A program made the translations under genes and the position numbers. A stretch of 64,000 bases of DNA, taken from a virus (taxonomy: Duplodnaviria > Caudoviricetes). The notes beneath the pieces were generated by a model. That model was given only the letters and a program-made list of their open reading frames with translations, was not told the DNA's origin and searched no databases. This document shows positions 2,316 through 31,422 of the stretch, piece after piece (position 1 is the stretch's first letter; each line of letters opens with the position of its first letter). The stretch covers positions 64,001 through 128,000 of IMG/VR virus record IMGVR_UViG_3300013105_000022; one strand, written 5' to 3'.

Positions 2316-2819
2316 TTACGGGGAAACCTCGTAGAGGTTCGTGGTCACAGAACCCTTTGGAACGTGGAACTCGTACCAAGTGGCAGTCTGAACGTTCCAC
2401 GGAACCCAGAAGTCGGCGTACCAGTCCCAAGTCTGCTTGAGAAGGTAAGGCTGGTCCTGCTCATCCTCGTAGATGTCGGCCCGGTCACTACCGACACGAT
2501 CCGCGTGAAACCCTCCGTCTTCGTACTCAACGATGTAGGAGAGAGTAGAGCGATCTGACACGTACCCGGAGACTACGAAGATGCCTCCATGCGTCACGCC
2601 CTGAATTCCTTCCTTCGATGCGACAGCGGCGAGGTTGAACTTCTCCTCAGCGACCATGACACCGCGCTCAGCGTTGAAGAGTCCGATGCCGCACACGACC
2701 ACCAAGGCGATGACTCCGACGATGCCCGTTCCCACAGCCGTGAATTCCGGGTCCTCACTGAAGATGATCGTCAGAACGAAAGCTACGATGACAAGAACGA
2801 GAACGATCCAGAAGATCAT
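2316..2819 (-). CDS. membrane protein with two N-terminal TM helices
   Basis: Two hydrophobic stretches; 4-bp overlap with the upstream gene. Confidence 0.75.
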   Translation of the reverse strand: MIFWIVLVLVIVAFVLTIIFSEDPEFTAVGTGIVGVIALVVVCGIGLFNAERGVMVAEEKFNLAAVASKEGIQGVTHGGIFVVSGYVSDRSTLSYIVEYEDGGFHADRVGSDRADIYEDEQDQPYLLKQTWDWYADFWVPWNVQTATWYEFHVPKGSVTTNLYEVSP

Positions 2820-3367
2820 GCATTCACCACCGAGGGAAGTTCGGCATCGAACATCGCCTCAGCCAGCTTCTTGGAGCGAGCCTTGAACTTCTTCGAGACA
2901 TCGAAGCCATTGACATTGCGCTTGACAGTGAAGGAGCGCTCACGACCCGGAGCACCAAGTTCGTCGCAGAGCTTGTCGTACTCGACGCAGTGACGTGCCT
3001 TGGTGGCTACCCGAGCGGCATCCTCCCAAATCCAGGCGATGCGAGGGTCATCGATGTCGATGCCACCCTCAGGGGTCTCACCGATCTGACGCGGGCGAGG
3101 AGCGTTCGGGTCCAGAATCTCGAAGATGGACTCGACGGCATCGGAGTTCTTAGGGTCCAGGTACACTGGAACGGTGACGGTCTGGGGGTATCCGTAGATC
3201 GTGGCCTCACCGCGAACCCACACGGAAGCGGTTCCGACCTTGCGGATTTCTACTTCTGTGTCTGCGGGAATGGTTGCGGCAGTGCCGTAGCTACCGATGT
3301 AGCGTCCTCGCTGATCGATACGCAACTTCAGCCGAGTACCTACTTCGAGTTCAGATGTGGTGGTCAT
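2816..3367 (-). CDS. hypothetical protein
   Basis: AGGAG RBS and ATGA overlap. Confidence 0.75.
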   Translation of the reverse strand: MTTTSELEVGTRLKLRIDQRGRYIGSYGTAATIPADTEVEIRKVGTASVWVRGEATIYGYPQTVTVPVYLDPKNSDAVESIFEILDPNAPRPRQIGETPEGGIDIDDPRIAWIWEDAARVATKARHCVEYDKLCDELGAPGRERSFTVKRNVNGFDVSKKFKARSKKLAEAMFDAELPSVVNA

Positions 3368-3588
3368 GCTTGCTCCTTTGGTGTGACAATGATGAAGTCG
3401 CTACCGACGTTCACTACGTATCCTTCCAGATCGTAGTCACCCTTGTCAAGGCTCTGGAGCAAGTTTCTTTCGAGAACTTCAGCATCCCGACGATACTTCT
3501 CCGCAAGATCACGCGCGACCGCGAGACTGTGGATGCCCTTGGTGGCCACGTGCCGGTGCTTGAGTGAGGGAAAATCTGCGAGTGTCAT
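3364..3588 (-). CDS. hypothetical protein (leaderless)
   Basis: ATG 15 nt from the GCGTATA motif. Confidence 0.7.
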   Translation of the reverse strand: MTLADFPSLKHRHVATKGIHSLAVARDLAEKYRRDAEVLERNLLQSLDKGDYDLEGYVVNVGSDFIIVTPKEQA

Positions 3589-3593
3589 GATCT

Positions 3594-3623
3594 AGTTATA
3601 CGCTTACGTGCGCTTCATGTCAA
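3594..3623 (-). promoter_or_regulatory. GCGTATA-class promoter, TTGACA-N17-TATAAC
   Basis: Minus strand: TTGACAtgaagcgcacgtaaGCGTATAACTagatcATG. Confidence 0.8.
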
Positions 3624-3644
3624 ATCGTGTGCTACACTGGGTAC

Positions 3645-3690
3645 TGTCCCCAGAGCAATTGGTCCCCGCCTTAGCTCTGGGGACATTTTT
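3645..3690 (+). ncRNA. candidate ~45-nt hairpin small RNA, or a terminator
   Basis: TGcTACACT extended -10 at 3630-3638; 12-bp perfect stem 3645-3656/3674-3685; 17-nt loop; T5 tail. Confidence 0.5.
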
Positions 3691-3736
3691 GTGCCGGTTG
3701 GGGCCGTGACCTCGAATCGGGGTGTATGATCGATCT

Positions 3737-3995
3737 TGCCGTAAGGCGGGGGCTGTCGTAAACCGACTCCAATCACTCCATAGTTGATGCCTCTCGAAAA
3801 ATGAAGTTGAGCTAGTAACCCTCCTTCATCCGAGTTGAGACTGTGATGGTGCCTCCCTAACTCCTGAAGAGTTGGATGACAATGGTGTCTCCTGCTCAAC
3901 GCTTCGTGCGTGGGGGGTAGGGGGGCATTATCCAATATCCAGTCTCAACATCGAAAATGAAGAATAAGCTAGTACTTCTAGCGTGCGCGAGGCAC
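3737..3995 (+). ncRNA. candidate long rod-like structured RNA
   Basis: TATGAT at 3725-3730; nested stems 3788-93/3989-94, 3811-15/3978-82, 3824-29/3957-62, 3834-43/3940-49, 3845-59/3918-32, several with G-U pairs. Confidence 0.6.
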
Positions 3996-4011
3996 GGGTG
4001 TGTCCGCGTGC

Positions 4012-4041
4012 TTGTCCACTCCACGCCTCAGGCGTATACAT
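4012..4041 (+). promoter_or_regulatory. GCGTATA-class promoter
   Basis: TTGTCC-N17-TATACA; GCGTATA at 4032, ATG at 4047. Confidence 0.75.
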
Positions 4042-4046
4042 GGACT

Positions 4047-4277
4047 ATGAGCGACAACGAACTTGACCACAACAACAAGGTCTACCCGTCTATTGAGGGT
4101 CTTGTCCACCAGATCGTGGATGCCCTTGAGACGAGCAGTGACTTCGTATGGTACTCCTTCAAACGTCCTATCTTTGGGCCAGGAGAGAACGAGGTTCTTC
4201 TCGAAGCCATCTCGTATGACGAGGACGGCGAGGAAGAGAAGTTCTACCACGTGAAGATCAACGTGGAGGCTATCTGA
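4047..4277 (+). CDS. hypothetical acidic protein (leaderless start)
   Basis: Start moved from 3957 to ATG 4047 on promoter spacing. Confidence 0.7.
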   Translation: MSDNELDHNNKVYPSIEGLVHQIVDALETSSDFVWYSFKRPIFGPGENEVLLEAISYDEDGEEEKFYHVKINVEAI

Positions 4278-4666
4278 TGACGAATCTAGACTACGATTAT
4301 GTAGAAAACTACCCGGACTACCTTCAGTGGGTGCCGGTGGACATCACCGAAGACATCTTCAAGGTGACTCTGGAGAAGAACCTCCAGCTTCCCATCTTCG
4401 AGGCAGAGGACGGTGAAGGTCTCTACGGATATGGTGCTATCGAGCCAGAGCTTTTTTTGATGTACGCAAACCTCTACGACTACCAGACCACAGGCGAGCT
4501 TATGCCTTACGGTGGGGTATCCGCTGTGAAGACAGGATGGTTCCGTACCGTCCGTCGTGAGGACATGCTGGAAGACCCAGAGTTCCGCTTCGTGCCCTTG
4601 GAAGTCAATCTGGGGGACACTACTCCTGAGACCGGCAAGATCATGATGACTTGGATCGACAGATGA
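4277..4666 (+). CDS. hypothetical protein
   Basis: GGAGG RBS and TGATG coupling. Confidence 0.75.
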   Translation: MTNLDYDYVENYPDYLQWVPVDITEDIFKVTLEKNLQLPIFEAEDGEGLYGYGAIEPELFLMYANLYDYQTTGELMPYGGVSAVKTGWFRTVRREDMLEDPEFRFVPLEVNLGDTTPETGKIMMTWIDR

Positions 4667-15507: not shown

Positions 15508-18500
15508 GTGAGCACCGAACTAGAACTTGAGTTCATCGAACTAGCCGTAGGTAAGGGCCGTCGAGTCCAGACCGCTGAAGGTGCTAGGTTCTACGGTCAG
15601 CCTATTGGCACGCTCATCACGCCGGACATGATTAAGAAGGCGCGCTCTGCCGCCAAGGCAAAGGGCATCACCCCGCCCAAGGGTGGCCTCTCTCCGAAGA
15701 AGGCACCCCAGGTATCTGTAGGTGCTGGCAAGGCGTCTCCCGCTGGCAACTTCAATGCTGATCCATCCGCTGGAGCACCTGTAGGCGCTGACACTTCCGG
15801 CAAATTCCAGGTGAAGCCCTCCTCTATCAAGGGTCCTCAAGGATTCAAGGTCGGCGCTACTCAGTACTCCGCTCCTTCCGGCTCTAAGCTCATTCGTCCG
15901 AAGAATCAGGAAGAGTTCGCGTACGTCGTAACTCCGGATGGTTCTGTTCACGCCTTCACCGCCGCCGGTGAGCTAGACGTACCCGACTACCTAGAGCCTG
16001 TCCTTACGAAGAAGTTCAAGGACCTCAAGGGTGATGACACCCTCTACAAGGTAGACACCTTCGATGCCCCGTCCTCCTTGGCTGAGCAGAAGCCAGGCTC
16101 TACGCTGTCCAAGAACGGCAAGCCTCTGTTCAAGAAGCAGGCCAACGGCGTGTGGATGAACGAGGACATCGGTGCTGAGCTTACTGACGATGACCTACAG
16201 CGCCTCTACGATGGTGGTAGCTTCGATCTGGAGCCTGCCAACACTGTCGAGGACATCGACTTCTCAAAGCTGACTACTGACGAGCTTCAGGCCGCTCTTG
16301 AGGCTATGCCTGACGGCAAGCAGATGAAGTTCTCCAAGACTGTCGTAACCAAGAAGAACGGCAAGTGGAACTCCTCCGCCACAGGAAAGAACACTTCCTC
16401 TGAGGACCTGGCATACATGTCAGCAGGTACCGGCTCTATCACAGACAAGCTCGACAACCCTGAGGTAGCCCCAGAGCCTGGTAAGGCTGACAAGGCCGCT
16501 AAGGAGAAGGAAGCTTCTGACCCGCTTCGTAATCCAGAAAATGAGCTAAATGAGACAAATGCTCAGAAGAAGAAGGCGACAGAAGCCAAGGCTACGGGCG
16601 CGGAAATTCTAAAGTCCGAAGTCGGAGCAGTGGTATACCATGACGTTGCCGGTGCCCTCACCAAGCAGGACAATTCCACCTGGGAGAACACTGACGGAGC
16701 CTCCTTCGCAGAAGTAAATATTGTTGACTCTGCCAACATGGGTTACATCTCTAATGAGCCTTGGACTCCAGAGCAGAAGGATGCTAAGGAGAAGTTCGAC
16801 GCCGAGAACACCCTGACGGTTGGGGGCAAGGAGCTATCCACCGTAGGTAAGTTCGGTGAGAACGACCGCTCCGAGGCCATCAAGGCAGATGGCGGATCGA
16901 CACCGAACGTCTTCGAGCTAGAAGCTACTCCAGAGAACGTTAAGACGTTCCGTGACGCCATGCAGAAGTCGCTTGAGGGAAACCCTTACTCTGCATCCGT
17001 GTACGTCTACGACGAGTCCGACTACGCGGGTATGCGCCTCTTCCTGTCCGACGATGGAAAGAGCGGTATCGCCCTGCACGACGGAGACGAGATTGTCTCC
17101 GTCTTCAGCGACCCCAAGAGCAAGAACAAGAAGGTAGCTCGCCACCTAATCTCCGTAGCTGTGGAGAACGGTGGAAAGCGCCTAGACGCCTTCGACACAG
17201 TGCTACCGGGAATCTACGCTAAGGAGGGCTTCATTGTCAAGTCTCGCCTGAAGTGGGATGACGACTTCGCCCCGGAGAACTGGAACAAGGAAACCTTCAA
17301 GAAGTTCAACAACGGCGAGCCGGATGTTGTCTTCATGCAGTACGAGAAGGGCATGGAAGACCTCGACTACGAGCCGGGTTCCGGAGACTACGTAGATGAC
17401 TACGACAAGGGCCTAGCATCCACCGGCGGTAAGGCACAGGACGAGAACGACTATCGTCCTGAGATTGGCGACCCTGATAACGAAGAGAACAGCGTAGAGA
17501 CCACCAAGAGCGGCTACGTTGTCAACGATGAGGTCAAGTCTTCCCTAGCTGAGGGTAAGAAGATCAACGCCATCCTCAACCTGAAGAACTCCAACAAGGG
17601 GATGTCTCTGGCTGAGGCCAAGAAGGAAATCGACGCGATGGTTCTCGAAGGGTACCAGCCCGGAGACACCGTAAGTGGAAACATGCTCTGGGAGCTTCCA
17701 GAGGGTGCCAAGATCAAGACCGCTTCAGGTGGAGAGTTCACCAAGAACGAGAATGGCAACTGGGTCACCAAGAACGGTGGTGTCTTCTCTTCGAGCGATA
17801 TGTACGATGACGGTATGGATGCTGAGATTGTAAGCAACCCTGCCGCCAAGCAGAAGAAGATCGAAGCACCGAAGGTTGAAGAGCCTGAGGTTGATCCTGA
17901 TGAGGAGTTCCACAGCCTTCTCGAAGCGAATGAAGTCACAGTCGAGAAGCTGATTGACCTCAAGGCCGGAGACATCATCTCCAACGGTGAGTTTGAGTTC
18001 ACCAAGGATGAGAACGACAAGTTCGTCAACGACCAGTTCCTATACGAGTTCGACGCTGACGACTTCTCCCAGGACATCGACAATGGCAAGATTTCCATTG
18101 TCGAGCAGACCGGCTCTGACGATGAAGAAGCCGTAGATGCAGACACCGCAACTGTAGACGACCTCAAGGCTATGAAGCCGGGTGACTCCGTGAACATCGC
18201 GGATTTCAAGTACGTCATGAATGATGATGGGAAGCTGGTTTCGGACACGAGCGGGTGGCTGTTTGACCCGCAGGAATTCGAGCAGGACCTAAAGACGTGG
18301 GGTTCTAAGAAGAGTGACATCACTCCGTCTCAGACTGTCGAAAAGTACGGCGAGAACGGCAACGAGTTCCTTCCAGAGGCTCAGGCTAAGCAGGCCATCG
18401 AGTCCCTGGAAGCACACTCTGGTTTCCAGATCAAGTACGGACTGAAGTCTCTGCCTGAGGATCACCCGCTCAAGAACCAGGAGTACCTTGACGGGTACCT

Positions 18501-21500
18501 CGCTGACGCCAAGCAGAACTTCTCCGACCTTTCCCCTAAGGCCGCTCTGCTCGCTCAACTGAAGCTGGATGCCAAGGTAGAGAAGCTGGACGAATGGGAG
18601 AAGGAGCTTCTTGCAGAGGGAAGCACTGACAAGATTCAGATCGGCTCTCGTACCCCGAAGACAAACGCTACCGGTGTAACCGGAGGACAGTTCAACAAGG
18701 GCGACGTTCAGAGTGCCATCGACATCCTGGAGAACTACAACGGCAAGCTGTTCAAGAGCGAACTGAACAAGAAGGGCAACCCTCTCGGTAAGCTGTCCCC
18801 GAACGACATCGTAGGCTTCGATAAGGACAAGACCCTTACCAAGCAGAAGTTCATTGATCTTCTGAAGAAGAAGGTTGCTCCGAAGGAAGCTCCTGTAGAA
18901 GAGGCTATGAACAAGCAGTTCGACATCTCTCAGGAGCCTGAAGAGGGTAAGGTTGTCGCCGCTGATCCGGACATGAGCGCTCTCAAGAATGCCCCGGTGG
19001 GTACCATTGTGAGCAGGCCCACTCCTCCTTACATGGGTACGCCTAACGGTCTTCAGAAGTACCAGAAGAACGAGGACGGCACTTGGTCTAACATTGAGGG
19101 AACTACTCCACCAAAGCAGTCTGATAGCGTCTTCTTCTACAACACAGCCATGAGTGGTGGGCTGAAGTGGAGCGCTCCGGATGTTCCAGAGAGGGAAGAC
19201 AACGGCCAGTACGCTGACGGTGACCTGATCCAGTCATTCGAGAACTTCAAGAATCTGCCGGTCGGTTCTGAAGTTAGCTTCCAGTCTAAGTACGGTGGAG
19301 ACCCCTCTACCTATGTAAAGACGCGCCCCGACACCTGGGTAGTATCCGATGACCCAGACCTCAAGCTGAAGGATCAGAACTTCAAGAACTCCGTCGAGGG
19401 TGGATCACTCAGCTACAAGAAGACAGAGCCTACCGCTCCTGATGCCGACGACTCCCTGGATGCTACGCTCGACGCGCACTTCCAGATCATGGCCGAGCTT
19501 GACAAGGCTGTTTCCGTTCTGCCCGCTGAAGAGCGCGGCGAGAACGGTGATGGCTATGTCATCGTGCACACGGAGAAGGGTCCAAAGATCACGTGGGGTA
19601 AGTTCGGTGGTGGAGGTATCGCTACCGTAGCCACGGACGAGAACGGTGTGAAGAAGGTCCTCATCGGTAAGCGTGGAGACCGCGATGAGTGGTACCTGCC
19701 GGGTGGAGCTATCGATGAGAACGAGAGCCACCTTCAGGGTTCGCTCCGTGAGTTCACCGAAGAAGTAGAAGATGGTGACGCCATTCTGGACAGCATCCAG
19801 ATCACGCAGGCGTACCAGGCTGTCATCGGAAAGATCGAAGGAACGGACAAGGACTGGAAGTACGTCACGTCTGTTGCTACACTGCCTTCCATGATCGATG
19901 TCAAAGCACCGGATAGCATCGAGGATTGGGAACTCAAGGAGTACCAGTGGTTTAGTGCTGAAGAGCTTAATGTGCTCGATGCTGAGGGTAAGCTTCACCC
20001 TGCCCTGGGAGGAGGAAACCTTGCCAAGATGGTAGGTTTCTACGACACGGAAGTTGACGACCTCCACGCAGACATCCTCTCCCTCATGAACGAGCCGGAC
20101 AACCTCAACGAGGATCGATACGACATCTCCAACTGGAAGAAGGTCGATGGAGGTCAGGGCGGATCGAACCCTGGCGGCGTGTACGAAGACCCTCTGGGCA
20201 ACAAGTACTACGTCAAGGAGTCCAACGGCGGCGAAGCACCGATGCATAACGAGGTCATCGGTGGCGCACTCTACAAGGCCGCTGGTGTCAACAGCAACGA
20301 AGTCTTCTTCGTTACTAAGGGCGATCAGCGTCTTCTGGCGACCCCGTGGATCGAGAACAACGGGCAGAAGATGCTTGACGTTCTCGACGGCAACGAAAAT
20401 GAGTTCAGGAAGAAGGCCCAGGCTGACTTCGCTATCGATGCCTGGCTGGACAACTACGATGTCGTCGGTATCGGCCCGTGGAACCTTGTGGCTGACGAGA
20501 ACGGTGATCCTCTACGACTTGATCCAGGCGGCTCGATGATGTTCCGTGCTACTGGAGCAGAAAAGTCGTGGTGGAGCGACGAGCCTACCGCTATCGATGA
20601 CATGCGCTTCGGTTCCAGCAACTCCAGTGCCTACACTTACCTCCCGAATGTCTTCGGTGATATGACGGGCGATCAAGTGAAGGAATCTGCGAAGAAGCTC
20701 CTCGCGGTGACCCCCGAGAAGATCAGCACTATCGTCAACTCTTCCGGGCTTGACGAGGATACTAAGGCCAAGCTGTACTCGACTCTGGTGATCCGCCGTG
20801 AGAAGATTCTGGACCGCTTCGGTCTGACTCCTGAGGGAACGACGATTGACGTGCCCGAAGCCGTTTCTGGTACCCCTGCATTCACTAAGGGTACGACAGT
20901 CAAGCTGAAGGGTACCGGTCAGCAGTTCCAGGTTGAGCTTTCTAACAATGAGGCTACAGCCGGTCTCGTAGACGGCAAGTTCCTGGTCTTCCTGAACGAC
21001 GAGCTTACGGGCGATCTGGAAGCTAACTTTAGTGCTCAGCACGCCTTCACATCGAACGGTGAGAACTTCAAGCAGGCTGAGGCCGTTGAGGTCATCGACC
21101 CGAAGAACCCCGGACAGAAGATTCCAGGATTCGTCATGAAGGCCGACTGGTCAAGTGGTCTCGTACAGGTCATGACAGGCGCTGAGGGTGGAGAAACAAC
21201 CAGCATCGAGGTAGACAAGTCTCACATCACGAAGATGCCTCAGCAGGCTCCACAGCGCGTCGAGCTTCCAGAGGGCTACGCTAAGGTACCTGAGGGCCAG
21301 AAGGCATTCGGCAAGTACCCGAACCTGGGTTACTACGTCACCGTGGACGAGAGCGACGAGACTCACGTCTATGGAATCGATGGCAGTTCTTGGGCAGGAG
21401 GACCTAAGGCCGCTTACGAGCAGGCATTCAAGAACCCTGAAAGCTCCTGGGAAGCTTGGAGCGGAGATGGTTCCGCTCCAGAGCCGCAGGCTACCCCAGA

Positions 21501-23376
21501 GGTCGAGACTCCTGCCGATGGCCCGAAGGACAGCGCGGGTCAGGTGGTCGCTATGGGCGACAACGTGACTATCGTCAAGTACAACAAGGGCGGACTCTCC
21601 AACAAGGCCACCATCGTCTCGATCAACTCCGAGAAGGGAACCGCAAAGGTTCGCCGTCTGGATGAGAACGGTGTGCCTATGGTGGGCGAGAACGGCAAGC
21701 CTCTGTACGCTACGATGTCGCTGTCCAGCCTCCGCAAGGACAACCAGACCGTGAACGAGAGTGGTCTGCCTACAGGCATCACCATGTCTGGTGGAGACAA
21801 GAACAGCCCTCTGTATGGACAGCCTGAGCCTGTCGCACCGGCGGCTACTCCACAGACCGAATCTGATGCCCCAATCGTCTCTGACGAGTGGATCAGCAAG
21901 GCCACAGAGGCTTACAAGGCCTACCGCTCCAAGAAGGGCCTCCCTGAGAAGGACCTGAAGCTGTCTACCACGGCTTGGGGTCCTATCGAGAGAGCCATGA
22001 AGGGTGACGAGTCTGCGCTGACCGCTATCAAGACCAAGGGTTACCTGGACGAAGACCCGGCCCTGTATGAAGAAATTCAGCAGGCCATCGACGCACAGAA
22101 GCTCAAGTACGCTGACATCATCGCTCAGCACGAGCAGGCTGTAACCGAATACCAGAAGCAGAAGTCCGAATGGATGACTGCCAATGGTGTTGCCTCCTAC
22201 ACGCCGATCAAGCACGAGCAGACTCTTCAGATGAACGAGAACGAGTCCAAGGACTGGGCACTCAAGAAGTACACCAACATCTTGAGCAAGCTGACCTCGA
22301 AGGCTAAGCAGGGTCTCCAGAGTCAGAAGGTCTCGTCGGACTGGCAGACGGTCATTCGCAAGCTTCCAGCCATCCTGGGTCTTCGTCGTGAGGACGTAGC
22401 TAGCGCGCCTGGAGTGCATGAAGCGAACATGCAGACGTGGGACAACATCAAGGAAGCCACAGACCAAGCAGGGCCTGTAGGAGAGGCCTTCCGCGCCGTA
22501 CGTACCATCTCATTCGACCGACTGGTTGGCCCGGACGGTAACCCTCTGACCTCTGATAGTGACCTGACCAAGATCATCGGTTCCATTCAGAAGGATCACG
22601 GAGCTATGGAGATTGTTCCAGGTTCCGTCGATCACGGTGGTAAGATCGCTGACTTCTACCCTGTCATCATGGACCTCGCGGTTCCTGCCGACGCCAAGGG
22701 AATGTACACGGGCTTCGAAGAGTTCTCTTACAACGAAGAGCACGGAATCATCATGGAGCCTGGACTGGCCATGTACATCTGGGGTGCCGAGCAGAAGAAG
22801 ATTCCTCAGTTGGGTGGACTTACGAAGTGGGTCGTCAAGGCCTCTATCATCCCGCGCGATGTTCTGCCGTACATGAACAACTTCCAGGGTGATCCGATGA
22901 GTCACAACATCCTGATCCCTGGTAAGGACACCACGACCGGTATCACTTCATCTCCGTTCTCGGAAGAGAACTGGGGAAAGAGCACTCTCGCGGAGATTAA
23001 GAAGGCCAAGATCGATGACGCCGTTGTGGACTTCGATGGCAAGCAGTGGAAGAAGATCAACGACATCTCAACGGGAACGAAGATTTGGTGGCAGAACGGT
23101 ACAGGTAAGAAGGCCTCTGACCAGTTCCTCTTCGACAACTTCATGGGCGAGAAGCCCGCTCCGGAAGTCTTCGAGACCGTACAGCCTAAGGGATACAGGT
23201 GGACTGAATCCAAGCTGGACAATCTGAGCATCGGAGATAACGTCGTAGACAGTGACGGAGATATCTGGCAAAAGATTTCTGGCGGTGAATGGAAGCTGAT
23301 CCAGAAGAATGGCCCTAGCAACTACCTCGAAGTGGGCGAAGTTCGCTCCAGCTATGCCGTCGCATCCTACATGTAA
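15508..23376 (+). CDS. 2622-aa polyvalent head-module protein (GNAT-like, L7/L12-CTD-like, NUDIX, PI-kinase/HipA-like, VIP2 ART-like, repeated small modules)
   Basis: NUDIX box GGAIDENESHLQGSLREFTEEV; kinase-like YYVK..NE..DAWLDNYDVVG..NLV..LDPGG; lies between MuF and the protease. Confidence 0.8.
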   Translation: MSTELELEFIELAVGKGRRVQTAEGARFYGQPIGTLITPDMIKKARSAAKAKGITPPKGGLSPKKAPQVSVGAGKASPAGNFNADPSAGAPVGADTSGKFQVKPSSIKGPQGFKVGATQYSAPSGSKLIRPKNQEEFAYVVTPDGSVHAFTAAGELDVPDYLEPVLTKKFKDLKGDDTLYKVDTFDAPSSLAEQKPGSTLSKNGKPLFKKQANGVWMNEDIGAELTDDDLQRLYDGGSFDLEPANTVEDIDFSKLTTDELQAALEAMPDGKQMKFSKTVVTKKNGKWNSSATGKNTSSEDLAYMSAGTGSITDKLDNPEVAPEPGKADKAAKEKEASDPLRNPENELNETNAQKKKATEAKATGAEILKSEVGAVVYHDVAGALTKQDNSTWENTDGASFAEVNIVDSANMGYISNEPWTPEQKDAKEKFDAENTLTVGGKELSTVGKFGENDRSEAIKADGGSTPNVFELEATPENVKTFRDAMQKSLEGNPYSASVYVYDESDYAGMRLFLSDDGKSGIALHDGDEIVSVFSDPKSKNKKVARHLISVAVENGGKRLDAFDTVLPGIYAKEGFIVKSRLKWDDDFAPENWNKETFKKFNNGEPDVVFMQYEKGMEDLDYEPGSGDYVDDYDKGLASTGGKAQDENDYRPEIGDPDNEENSVETTKSGYVVNDEVKSSLAEGKKINAILNLKNSNKGMSLAEAKKEIDAMVLEGYQPGDTVSGNMLWELPEGAKIKTASGGEFTKNENGNWVTKNGGVFSSSDMYDDGMDAEIVSNPAAKQKKIEAPKVEEPEVDPDEEFHSLLEANEVTVEKLIDLKAGDIISNGEFEFTKDENDKFVNDQFLYEFDADDFSQDIDNGKISIVEQTGSDDEEAVDADTATVDDLKAMKPGDSVNIADFKYVMNDDGKLVSDTSGWLFDPQEFEQDLKTWGSKKSDITPSQTVEKYGENGNEFLPEAQAKQAIESLEAHSGFQIKYGLKSLPEDHPLKNQEYLDGYLADAKQNFSDLSPKAALLAQLKLDAKVEKLDEWEKELLAEGSTDKIQIGSRTPKTNATGVTGGQFNKGDVQSAIDILENYNGKLFKSELNKKGNPLGKLSPNDIVGFDKDKTLTKQKFIDLLKKKVAPKEAPVEEAMNKQFDISQEPEEGKVVAADPDMSALKNAPVGTIVSRPTPPYMGTPNGLQKYQKNEDGTWSNIEGTTPPKQSDSVFFYNTAMSGGLKWSAPDVPEREDNGQYADGDLIQSFENFKNLPVGSEVSFQSKYGGDPSTYVKTRPDTWVVSDDPDLKLKDQNFKNSVEGGSLSYKKTEPTAPDADDSLDATLDAHFQIMAELDKAVSVLPAEERGENGDGYVIVHTEKGPKITWGKFGGGGIATVATDENGVKKVLIGKRGDRDEWYLPGGAIDENESHLQGSLREFTEEVEDGDAILDSIQITQAYQAVIGKIEGTDKDWKYVTSVATLPSMIDVKAPDSIEDWELKEYQWFSAEELNVLDAEGKLHPALGGGNLAKMVGFYDTEVDDLHADILSLMNEPDNLNEDRYDISNWKKVDGGQGGSNPGGVYEDPLGNKYYVKESNGGEAPMHNEVIGGALYKAAGVNSNEVFFVTKGDQRLLATPWIENNGQKMLDVLDGNENEFRKKAQADFAIDAWLDNYDVVGIGPWNLVADENGDPLRLDPGGSMMFRATGAEKSWWSDEPTAIDDMRFGSSNSSAYTYLPNVFGDMTGDQVKESAKKLLAVTPEKISTIVNSSGLDEDTKAKLYSTLVIRREKILDRFGLTPEGTTIDVPEAVSGTPAFTKGTTVKLKGTGQQFQVELSNNEATAGLVDGKFLVFLNDELTGDLEANFSAQHAFTSNGENFKQAEAVEVIDPKNPGQKIPGFVMKADWSSGLVQVMTGAEGGETTSIEVDKSHITKMPQQAPQRVELPEGYAKVPEGQKAFGKYPNLGYYVTVDESDETHVYGIDGSSWAGGPKAAYEQAFKNPESSWEAWSGDGSAPEPQATPEVETPADGPKDSAGQVVAMGDNVTIVKYNKGGLSNKATIVSINSEKGTAKVRRLDENGVPMVGENGKPLYATMSLSSLRKDNQTVNESGLPTGITMSGGDKNSPLYGQPEPVAPAATPQTESDAPIVSDEWISKATEAYKAYRSKKGLPEKDLKLSTTAWGPIERAMKGDESALTAIKTKGYLDEDPALYEEIQQAIDAQKLKYADIIAQHEQAVTEYQKQKSEWMTANGVASYTPIKHEQTLQMNENESKDWALKKYTNILSKLTSKAKQGLQSQKVSSDWQTVIRKLPAILGLRREDVASAPGVHEANMQTWDNIKEATDQAGPVGEAFRAVRTISFDRLVGPDGNPLTSDSDLTKIIGSIQKDHGAMEIVPGSVDHGGKIADFYPVIMDLAVPADAKGMYTGFEEFSYNEEHGIIMEPGLAMYIWGAEQKKIPQLGGLTKWVVKASIIPRDVLPYMNNFQGDPMSHNILIPGKDTTTGITSSPFSEENWGKSTLAEIKKAKIDDAVVDFDGKQWKKINDISTGTKIWWQNGTGKKASDQFLFDNFMGEKPAPEVFETVQPKGYRWTESKLDNLSIGDNVVDSDGDIWQKISGGEWKLIQKNGPSNYLEVGEVRSSYAVASYM

Positions 23377-31384: not shown

Positions 31385-31422
31385 GCGATAGTAGTAGCTA
31401 GAGTAATCCCACTCTAGCTACT
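31385..31422 (+). promoter_or_regulatory. late promoter motif overlapping a 12-bp hairpin
   Basis: GCGATAGTA 31385-93; AGTAGCTAGAGT/ACTCTAGCTACT. Confidence 0.75.

Follow-up and report, generated by a model that had tools for sequence, protein, structure and literature searches.

Genomic setting of the hairpin locus

The sequence analysed here, referred to as the window, is a stretch of 64,000 nt taken from an IMG/VR virus record of 136.5 kb (bases 64001-128000). It has a G+C content of approximately 55% and carries genes for WhiB, SbcCD-like and clamp-loader proteins. Among named phages, Microbacterium phage Magritte is the nearest relative, the SbcC-like ATPases of the two being 57% identical. 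The hairpin and its proposed target are situated within a 460-bp divergent intergenic region, with genes running leftward from position 3588 and rightward from position 4047, and this divergent control region adjoins genes for replication and recombination. The intergenic region as a whole gave a folding z-score of -7.25 against shuffled sequence. GC skew and ORF strand counts, examined over the entire genome, were uninformative with regard to an origin. The features identified in the region are as follows.

3595-3623, - strand: predicted leftward promoter, with TTGACA (3623-3618), a 17-nt spacer, TATAAC (3600-3595), 6 nt and ATG 3588; a consensus match only
3630-3638, + strand: P_hp, predicted extended -10 promoter TGcTACACT (TGCTACACT), with its start at about 3644-3646, the base of hairpin P1
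3645-3685, + strand: hairpin P1, a perfect 12-bp stem (3645-3656/3674-3685) with a 17-nt loop (3657-3673)
3660-3673, + strand: pairing segment of the P1 loop, TGGTCCCCGCCTTA, complementary to the target
3686-3693, + strand: U-tract TTTTTGTG, the predicted 3' end of an RNA of approximately 46-49 nt
3725-3730, + strand: P_core, second predicted promoter; -10 box TATGAT, with its predicted start at about 3736-3738
3738-3747, + strand: P2, GNRA hairpin GCC-GTAA-GGC at the 5' terminus of the core RNA (predicted fold)
3742-3755, + strand: target of the P1 loop, extending from the 3' half of P2 across an invariant G-run (3748-3752) to the first base of P3
3755-3770, + strand: P3, hairpin GUCG-UAAAC-CGAC followed by an invariant UCC (RNAalifold and folds)
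3834-3949, + strand: rod domain of the core RNA, including conserved block B
4035-4049, + strand: third predicted promoter, gcgTATACAt, and ATG 4047 of the first rightward gene; leaderless, with equal spacing in the homologous locus L004

The predicted leftward promoter is back-to-back with P_hp and its gene is predicted to be leaderless, a layout that is also present in L004. On the other side of the region, gcgTATACAt sits 6 nt upstream of ATG 4047. The ORF listed from 3957 is probably an artefact, the first rightward gene being instead leaderless from this ATG. Four copies of the P_hp sequence TGCTACACT are present genome-wide, all of them on the + strand and none on the - strand. The three besides P_hp itself (window positions 19875 and 50591, being genome positions 83875 and 114591, and genome position 17811) are found 6-7 nt ahead of an ATG, which is the spacing expected of promoters for leaderless mRNAs. 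The copy at 19875 lies inside a single ORF of 2622 aa (15508-23376), where it could be an internal promoter or a chance occurrence.

A coding function for the region was rejected, as the ORFs at 3615-3935 (- strand) and 3957-4277 (+ strand) are without protein-level relatives in the homologous loci. Small ORFs beginning at an ATGAAG repeat were discarded likewise, with neither their sequence nor their frame being kept, and a type I toxin-antitoxin module was rejected because the ORFs there are not conserved. Searches against Rfam 15, whose families include 6C, 6S, riboswitches and GOLLD/ROOL, gave no matches at the gathering score in the 64-kb window; relaxing the cut-off to E ≤ 5 returned noise alone, both for 3560-4080 and for the Magritte intergenic region. 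A blastn search of 3300-4300 against GenBank phages matched nothing, and the Magritte intergenic region matched itself only. A literature search found no paper describing the hairpin RNA or the core RNA.

Hairpin P1 and its terminator-like structure

The sequence-only reading of this locus had proposed a transcript made up of one hairpin, consisting of an extended -10 element, a perfect 12-bp stem, a 17-nt loop and TTTTT, and each of these elements was located at the positions it had given. Its statement that the stem follows the -10 element immediately holds for the predicted transcription start, which falls at the base of the stem, but six bases (3639-3644) intervene between the two. The 12-nt arms of P1 are 100% complementary and the hairpin has a folding energy of -31.4 kcal/mol (z = -5.9), a value equalled by none of 200 shuffled sequences. 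Directly after the stem lies TTTTT (3686-3690), and this arrangement of a stable GC-rich hairpin followed by a U-rich tract is that of an intrinsic terminator. A study of actinobacterial RNA polymerase describes the U-tract as required for termination (PMC3993855).

P1 is built in the manner of the gene-end terminators of the same genome, which have perfect stems of 9-14 bp, loops of 9-20 nt, T-rich tails and promoters downstream. The loops of these gene-end terminators have no downstream complement, the runs being no longer than 4-6 nt. Terminator hairpins in which long perfect stems carry loops of up to 20 nt were observed at genome positions 18121, 19076, 23760 and 133616 and at window positions 31393-31422. 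Each of the four outside the window is directly followed by a promoter of the TTGACA or GCGTATACAT type, and terminator-promoter modules of this kind punctuate the long rightward operon.

Homologous loci and conservation of the hairpin unit

A set of 18 distinct homologous intergenic regions, the window among them, was gathered. Alignment of the ATPase with its Magritte homolog led to 21 IMG/VR loci, and profile searches with two conserved blocks identified the core RNA in L004, L005, L006, L008, L010, L020 and Magritte (L003). L110 was among the matches listed from a motif scan of metagenomes, while a scan of GTDB gave L170, a MAG contig. Protein database and contig look-ups (12 of 636 ATPase homologs) added L172-L180, which represent eight loci, L176 being a duplicate of L174. 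Motif scans of IMG/VR returned just the loci already in the set, along with chance matches such as L171, and a search for related loci by two flanking proteins found none. The core RNA was absent from the fetched flanks of 15 further ATPase-bearing loci (L007, L009, L011-L019, L021-L024). In L007 an array of tRNA genes (2740-3520) lies upstream of the ATPase gene, in a position equivalent to that of the RNA locus of the window.

Directly upstream of P_core, 14 of the 18 loci have a -10 box separated by 6-9 nt from a perfect 9-14 bp stem, which encloses a 13-33 nt loop and is followed by a T-rich tail. The stems are unrelated in sequence between lineages, and a compensatory change in the P1 stem distinguishes L174 from L175. 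The -10 boxes of the unit read TACACT, TAGACT, TACAGT, TAAAGT, TAATGT or TATCGT. A TAnnnT box 6-9 nt before the stem occurs in 13 of the 14 hairpin-bearing loci, the remaining one (L005) having TTGACT-17-CAAAAT instead; against a background of 0.03 per site, its presence in six of the first seven loci corresponds to P = 6e-9. The tail TTTTTCGTG is found in L172, L179 and L180, and TTTTT(C)GTG is kept in the clade of the window after stems which are otherwise unrelated. Of the first 8 nt of the tail, about 59% are T across the 14 loci, compared with a base composition of about 22%. The U-tracts of L008 and L170 are poor, and the T-rich tail and the P_core -35 box overlap in L005, L008 and L110, so that termination may be weak in these four loci.

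The promoter and the hairpin are both missing from the remaining four loci, namely Magritte, L020, L010 and L173. The last of these, from a close relative (80% identity in the ATPase), is a deletion in which hairpin and promoter are both gone and a remnant, GTCCCCGCTCATTTT (L173:1430-1500), is left. P1 and its promoter are thus gained or lost together, and the unit behaves as one accessory module.

The core RNA

Downstream of the hairpin unit is a conserved structured RNA of approximately 200-330 nt, here called the core RNA, which is common to the 18 phage loci and extends in the window over 3736-3950 and possibly on to about 4010. A P_core box, a 5' domain, a variable middle region and a long rod were identified in all 18. 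In homologs P_core is found about 85 nt downstream of the hairpin promoter, with 25-58 nt between P1 and the core -10 box. The P_core position is occupied by a TAnnnT box in every locus (L010 has TGcTACACT there), and in seven of them a -35 box (TTGCAT, TTGCGA, TTGCAA or CTGCAT) is present 17-18 nt upstream. With this second promoter lying between the hairpin and the target, a separate RNA is predicted to start at about 3737, with the target at its extreme 5' end.

The 5' domain consists of the P2 hairpin (lacking in L177), an invariant GGGG, the P3 hairpin and (C)UCC, with both hairpins showing co-variation. Most homologs have a hairpin at the P2 position, its stem varying between GCAC/GUGU, UGCC/GGCA, CUCUC/GAGAG, ACUC/GAGU and CCGC/GCGG, while three of the four pairs of the P3 stem show compensatory changes (RNAalifold). 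Block B (3902-3948, GGGGTAGGGGGG..TATCCAATATCC) forms the 3' strand of the basal helix of the rod. This helix co-varies, being CCAAC/GUUGG as compared with CCAGC/GCUG in L008, and the 3' strand of the rod is nearly invariant (GGGGUA(A/G)GGGG..UAUCC). Pairing of the G-run with the 3' end, as suggested by RNAalifold, was rejected as an alignment artefact, since the 3' segment pairs and co-varies with the 5' strand of the rod. The core RNA is non-coding, with no conserved ORF and with its conserved blocks falling in different frames. Its locus is unannotated in the GenBank record of Magritte (132683-133228).

Complementarity and co-variation of loop and target

As the sequence-only reading had noted, loop bases 3660-3673 can pair with 3742-3755 through 10 consecutive Watson-Crick pairs, or 14 when G-U pairs are counted. 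The uninterrupted part of the loop, 3664-3673 (CCCCGCCTTA), is the exact complement of 3742-3751. The overlap of the target with a GNRA hairpin was also borne out, its GCC at 3738-40 and GGC at 3745-47 enclosing GTAA. Neither the observed duplex energy nor the 10-nt run was reached by shuffled loops in 1000 trials. With its own complement excepted, the best target for the loop on either strand of the 136.5-kb genome is the site at 3741, by a small margin (-25.3 as against -23.0 kcal/mol for the next site), and other genomic sites are within 2-3 kcal/mol of the proposed target. The target is itself structured, and after the costs of opening P2 and P3 the net interaction energies are modest, at -10 to +2.5 kcal/mol, which favours pairing that is co-transcriptional or intramolecular. 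A YUNR U-turn motif is not claimed for the loop; UUGG occurs in that of the window and is absent by eye from those of L004, L005 and L006.

For the comparison between phages, the loop of each hairpin-bearing locus was scored against the 5' domain of every locus, and the cognate pairings were set against permuted ones. Column-wise counts of co-variation were dropped in favour of such permutation tests, as loops of 13-33 nt cannot be aligned by MAFFT and the pairing register slides. The longest Watson-Crick runs of the cognate pairs are 7-13 nt, with a sum of 125, compared with a mean of 81.5 and a maximum of 114 over 200,000 permutations, while the summed duplex energy is -383.8 compared with a permuted mean of -291 and minimum of -363.7. 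Thus, in none of the 200,000 permutations was either cognate value reached. Independent variation of loop and target among homologs had been named beforehand as the result that would count against an interaction; the opposite was found, with the two co-varying in the 14 loci. Individually, 12 of the 14 loci do better than shuffled loops at p < 0.05; the advantage is absent in L170 and marginal in L004 and L174. The control regions (the linker, the 42 nt after the 5' domain and the upstream sequence) gave p = 0.16-0.6, with block B weakly above chance (p = 0.015).

In all hairpin-bearing loci the paired segment is located 10-27 nt past the core -10 box, corresponding to about +3 to +20 of the core RNA, and this agrees with the earlier description of the target as the 5' end of the rod RNA. 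The register of pairing differs between phages. It covers the 3' arm of P2 and the G-run in the window, L174, L175, L179, L180 and L110, the G-run and P3 in L172, L177, L005 and L178, and P2 alone in L008. A compensatory change is apparent between close relatives, the window having GGC|GGGG in the target and CCCC|GCC in the loop where L179 and L180 have GGU|GGGGG and CCCCC|ACC. G-U pairs lengthen the helix of the + strand in 10 of the 14 loci (26 pairs), whereas on the - strand the equivalent was seen in 2 of 14 (2 pairs). The excess of the cognate pairs, the negative control regions and this restriction of G-U extension to one strand together argue for a selected RNA-RNA interaction of + strand transcripts. 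On this comparative evidence the loop-target complementarity is judged to be a selected RNA-RNA contact, and neither a DNA repeat nor a product of chance.

Possible modes of action

The co-variation supports the two alternatives originally offered, these being an sRNA/target pair and a pseudoknot in a read-through transcript. We rate the chances of the former as about even, the proposal being that a separate self-terminating hairpin RNA pairs in trans with the core RNA. P_hp and the hairpin with its U-tract (3645-3693) would constitute a separate self-terminating unit yielding a single-hairpin RNA of about 46-49 nt. The C-rich loop (3660-3673) would then pair in trans with approximately +5 to +19 of the core RNA, itself predicted to start at about 3737 from its own promoter, P_core. 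Such pairing would open the 5'-terminal P2 and sequester the invariant G-run where P3 begins, leaving the 5' domain remodelled or masked. The hairpin RNA would act as an antisense regulator whose gene shares the strand of its target and lies directly upstream of it. What we infer in this model is that both promoters are active, that P1 is an efficient terminator, that the pairing joins two molecules and that the core RNA is affected. As P_core is present in 18 of 18 loci, four of them without P1, the core RNA would be made and be functional in the absence of the hairpin. What the regulatory outcome for the core RNA might be is conjecture.

It is also possible, if less probable, that the contact is made in cis. 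P1 would then be leaky, transcripts from P_hp would read through it, and the loop would form a pseudoknot with P2 and the G-run some 70-100 nt downstream, giving a 5'-extended isoform of the core RNA with its 5' domain masked alongside the P_core form in which this domain is free. Co-variation of loop and target fits pairing within a molecule as well as pairing between two, and intramolecular pairing is kinetically easier and would overcome the modest net energies. The loop-to-target distance is also kept in a narrow range, as is evident from the 25-58 nt that separate P1 from the core -10 box, and some of the tails are the poor U-tracts (L008, L170) or overlap the P_core -35 box (L005, L008, L110). 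Against this, TTTTT(C)GTG is conserved right after unrelated stems in the clade of the window, P1 has the shape of the genuine terminators of the genome, and the linker is without conservation or complementarity outside the promoter elements. A strong terminator 35 nt before P_core would also seem ill-suited to a promoter whose purpose was a 5'-extended isoform. Moreover, the conservation of P_core in every locus means that the target should exist as a separate molecule too. A free hairpin RNA is therefore favoured by the terminator-like form of P1, the lack of a complement to the loops of other terminators, the need for a U-tract and the universal presence of P_core.

Explanations in which the complementarity has no role at the level of RNA are, taken jointly, unlikely. 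In one of these, which by itself is quite improbable, P1 is an ordinary terminator or insulator that merely stops transcription before P_core, and its complementarity to the core RNA is functionless or a by-product of a C-rich loop facing a G-run. Terminator-then-promoter modules with large loops are common in the window phage, the unit lies just behind the end of a + strand gene in L005, L008, L110 and L170, and C-rich loops do pair to some extent with any G-run, as is seen in the off-diagonal runs of 4-8 nt and in the p = 0.015 obtained for block B. The cognate pairs are, however, far above the non-cognate ones, and the loops of other terminators are without such a complement. Pairing also reaches into the lineage-specific P2 and P3, amounting to 13 nt without the G-run in L008 and to 15 pairs in L005. 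The window and L004 have no upstream + strand gene to be terminated, yet have a conserved promoter 6-9 nt before the stem. In the other, which is the most improbable of all, the complementary 10-13 bp segments are inverted repeats in the DNA for a DNA-binding protein or recombinase, for example bounding an invertible promoter segment containing P_core or forming an origin structure; the repeats do flank P_core at a spacing of 68 bp, in a divergent control region beside replication and recombination genes, but G-U extension of the helix and the GNRA and UUCG tetraloops of the core RNA are confined to the + strand, the register of the repeats slides against the conserved core between phages, one repeat is within the loop of a larger palindrome, and a segment of 68-90 bp is very short for recombinase-mediated inversion.

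Comparison with known antisense RNAs

The free hairpin RNA proposed here is closest in mode of action to the C4 and CI RNAs. From the work of Citron and Schuster and of Forti et al., these are reportedly encoded upstream of their targets, on the strand shared with them, and act through loop pairing. A hairpin RNA that is upstream of its target, on the same strand and pairs through its loop is shared with them, and C4 (phages P1 and P7) and CI (satellite phage P4) are described as small hairpin-like phage antisense RNAs (PMC8546580, PMC5499578). Whereas C4 and CI are released by RNase P from a longer operon transcript and target an mRNA, with the blocking of a ribosome site or premature termination as the result, the hairpin RNA has its own predicted promoter and terminator, consists of one hairpin and would target a structured, non-coding RNA at its extreme 5' end. 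It shares no similarity with C4 or CI in sequence or in Rfam.

With ColE1 the likeness is in the target. RNA I of this plasmid has small stem-loops which pair with the 5' end of the long structured RNA II, altering its folding. RNA I is encoded on the opposite strand, is fully complementary to its target, has three loops and is assisted by the protein Rom, and the target is a replication primer. The complementarity of the hairpin RNA, in contrast, is limited to 7-15 nt and both RNAs are from the same strand. A cis-encoded antisense RNA of the RNA I, CopA or Sok type was ruled out on similar grounds, the two elements being on the same strand, 68 nt apart and complementary over 10-14 nt.

The 6C RNA (RF01066) comes from the same phylum as the actinobacterial host and likewise has C-rich hairpin loops which pair with G-rich targets. 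It differs in having two hairpins instead of one, and the hairpin RNA has no Rfam match at E ≤ 5, is phage-encoded and would act on the adjacent RNA. P1 resembles an intrinsic terminator in its GC-rich perfect stem with a U-tract directly after, but unlike the usual terminator it is at the very start of its predicted transcript and has a loop that is under selection for complementarity to a nearby RNA. The co-variation of regulator and target such that complementarity is kept, as is typical of trans-acting base-pairing sRNAs, was observed here.

Actinobacteriophage genomes have few annotated RNA genes besides tRNAs. To our knowledge, antisense control in phages is limited to a few enterobacterial cases (oop, sar, C4 and CI), and we know of nothing comparable described for actinobacteriophages despite their thousands of sequenced genomes. 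The sequence comparisons presented here point to the hairpin and the core RNA being a new phage RNA-RNA control pair, the target RNA of which is undescribed. Its four elements, namely the hairpin promoter, the terminator hairpin, P_core and the structured target, would fit into approximately 130 nt as a compact circuit backed by co-variation. The core RNA is absent from Rfam, and the region that holds it is the main divergent control region in a group of phages of 120-140 kb. The loci that naturally lack the hairpin (Magritte, L020, L010 and L173, the last a deletion) provide ready controls.

A broader proposal, which we regard as rather doubtful, is that the rightward operon of about 60 kb in Magritte-like actinophages is headed by a large structured phage RNA of a new class, to which the hairpin RNA would be a dedicated antagonist. 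The core RNA could, speculatively, be a processive antitermination RNA allowing passage of the terminator-promoter modules, or a G-rich R-loop or primer RNA at an origin. Were the proposal true, the pair would amount to a ColE1-like timing or dosage circuit made of RNA only in a virulent phage.

Other sequence elements of the intergenic region

A direct repeat, TCGAAAA(A)TGAAG..AGCTAGTA, is found on either side of the rod at 3794-3817 and 3951-3974. The sequence CTTCAT at 3824-29 can pair with either copy of ATGAAG, forming a local hairpin as in L177 and L178 or a longer rod, and these alternatives could constitute a bistable switch. L004 and L174 have different repeats of their own flanking the rod. 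Between the rod and the promoter of the first gene is a GC-rich block, GCG(A/T)GCGCGAGG (3985-3995), also present in L003, L008, L020, L170 and L172. It occurs in different frames across the phages and is thus non-coding, and it may be an operator or a 3' hairpin of the core RNA. Magritte, which is without P1, has a 9-bp palindrome, GTACACACA..TGTGTGTAC, across the -35 box of its leftward promoter (L003:5729-5770), and this may be an operator. Clusters of GATC (GATCGATC; GATCaaaGATC) were also observed, being at 3727-3734 and 3589-3592 in the window and 3' of block B in L003, L005 and L110.
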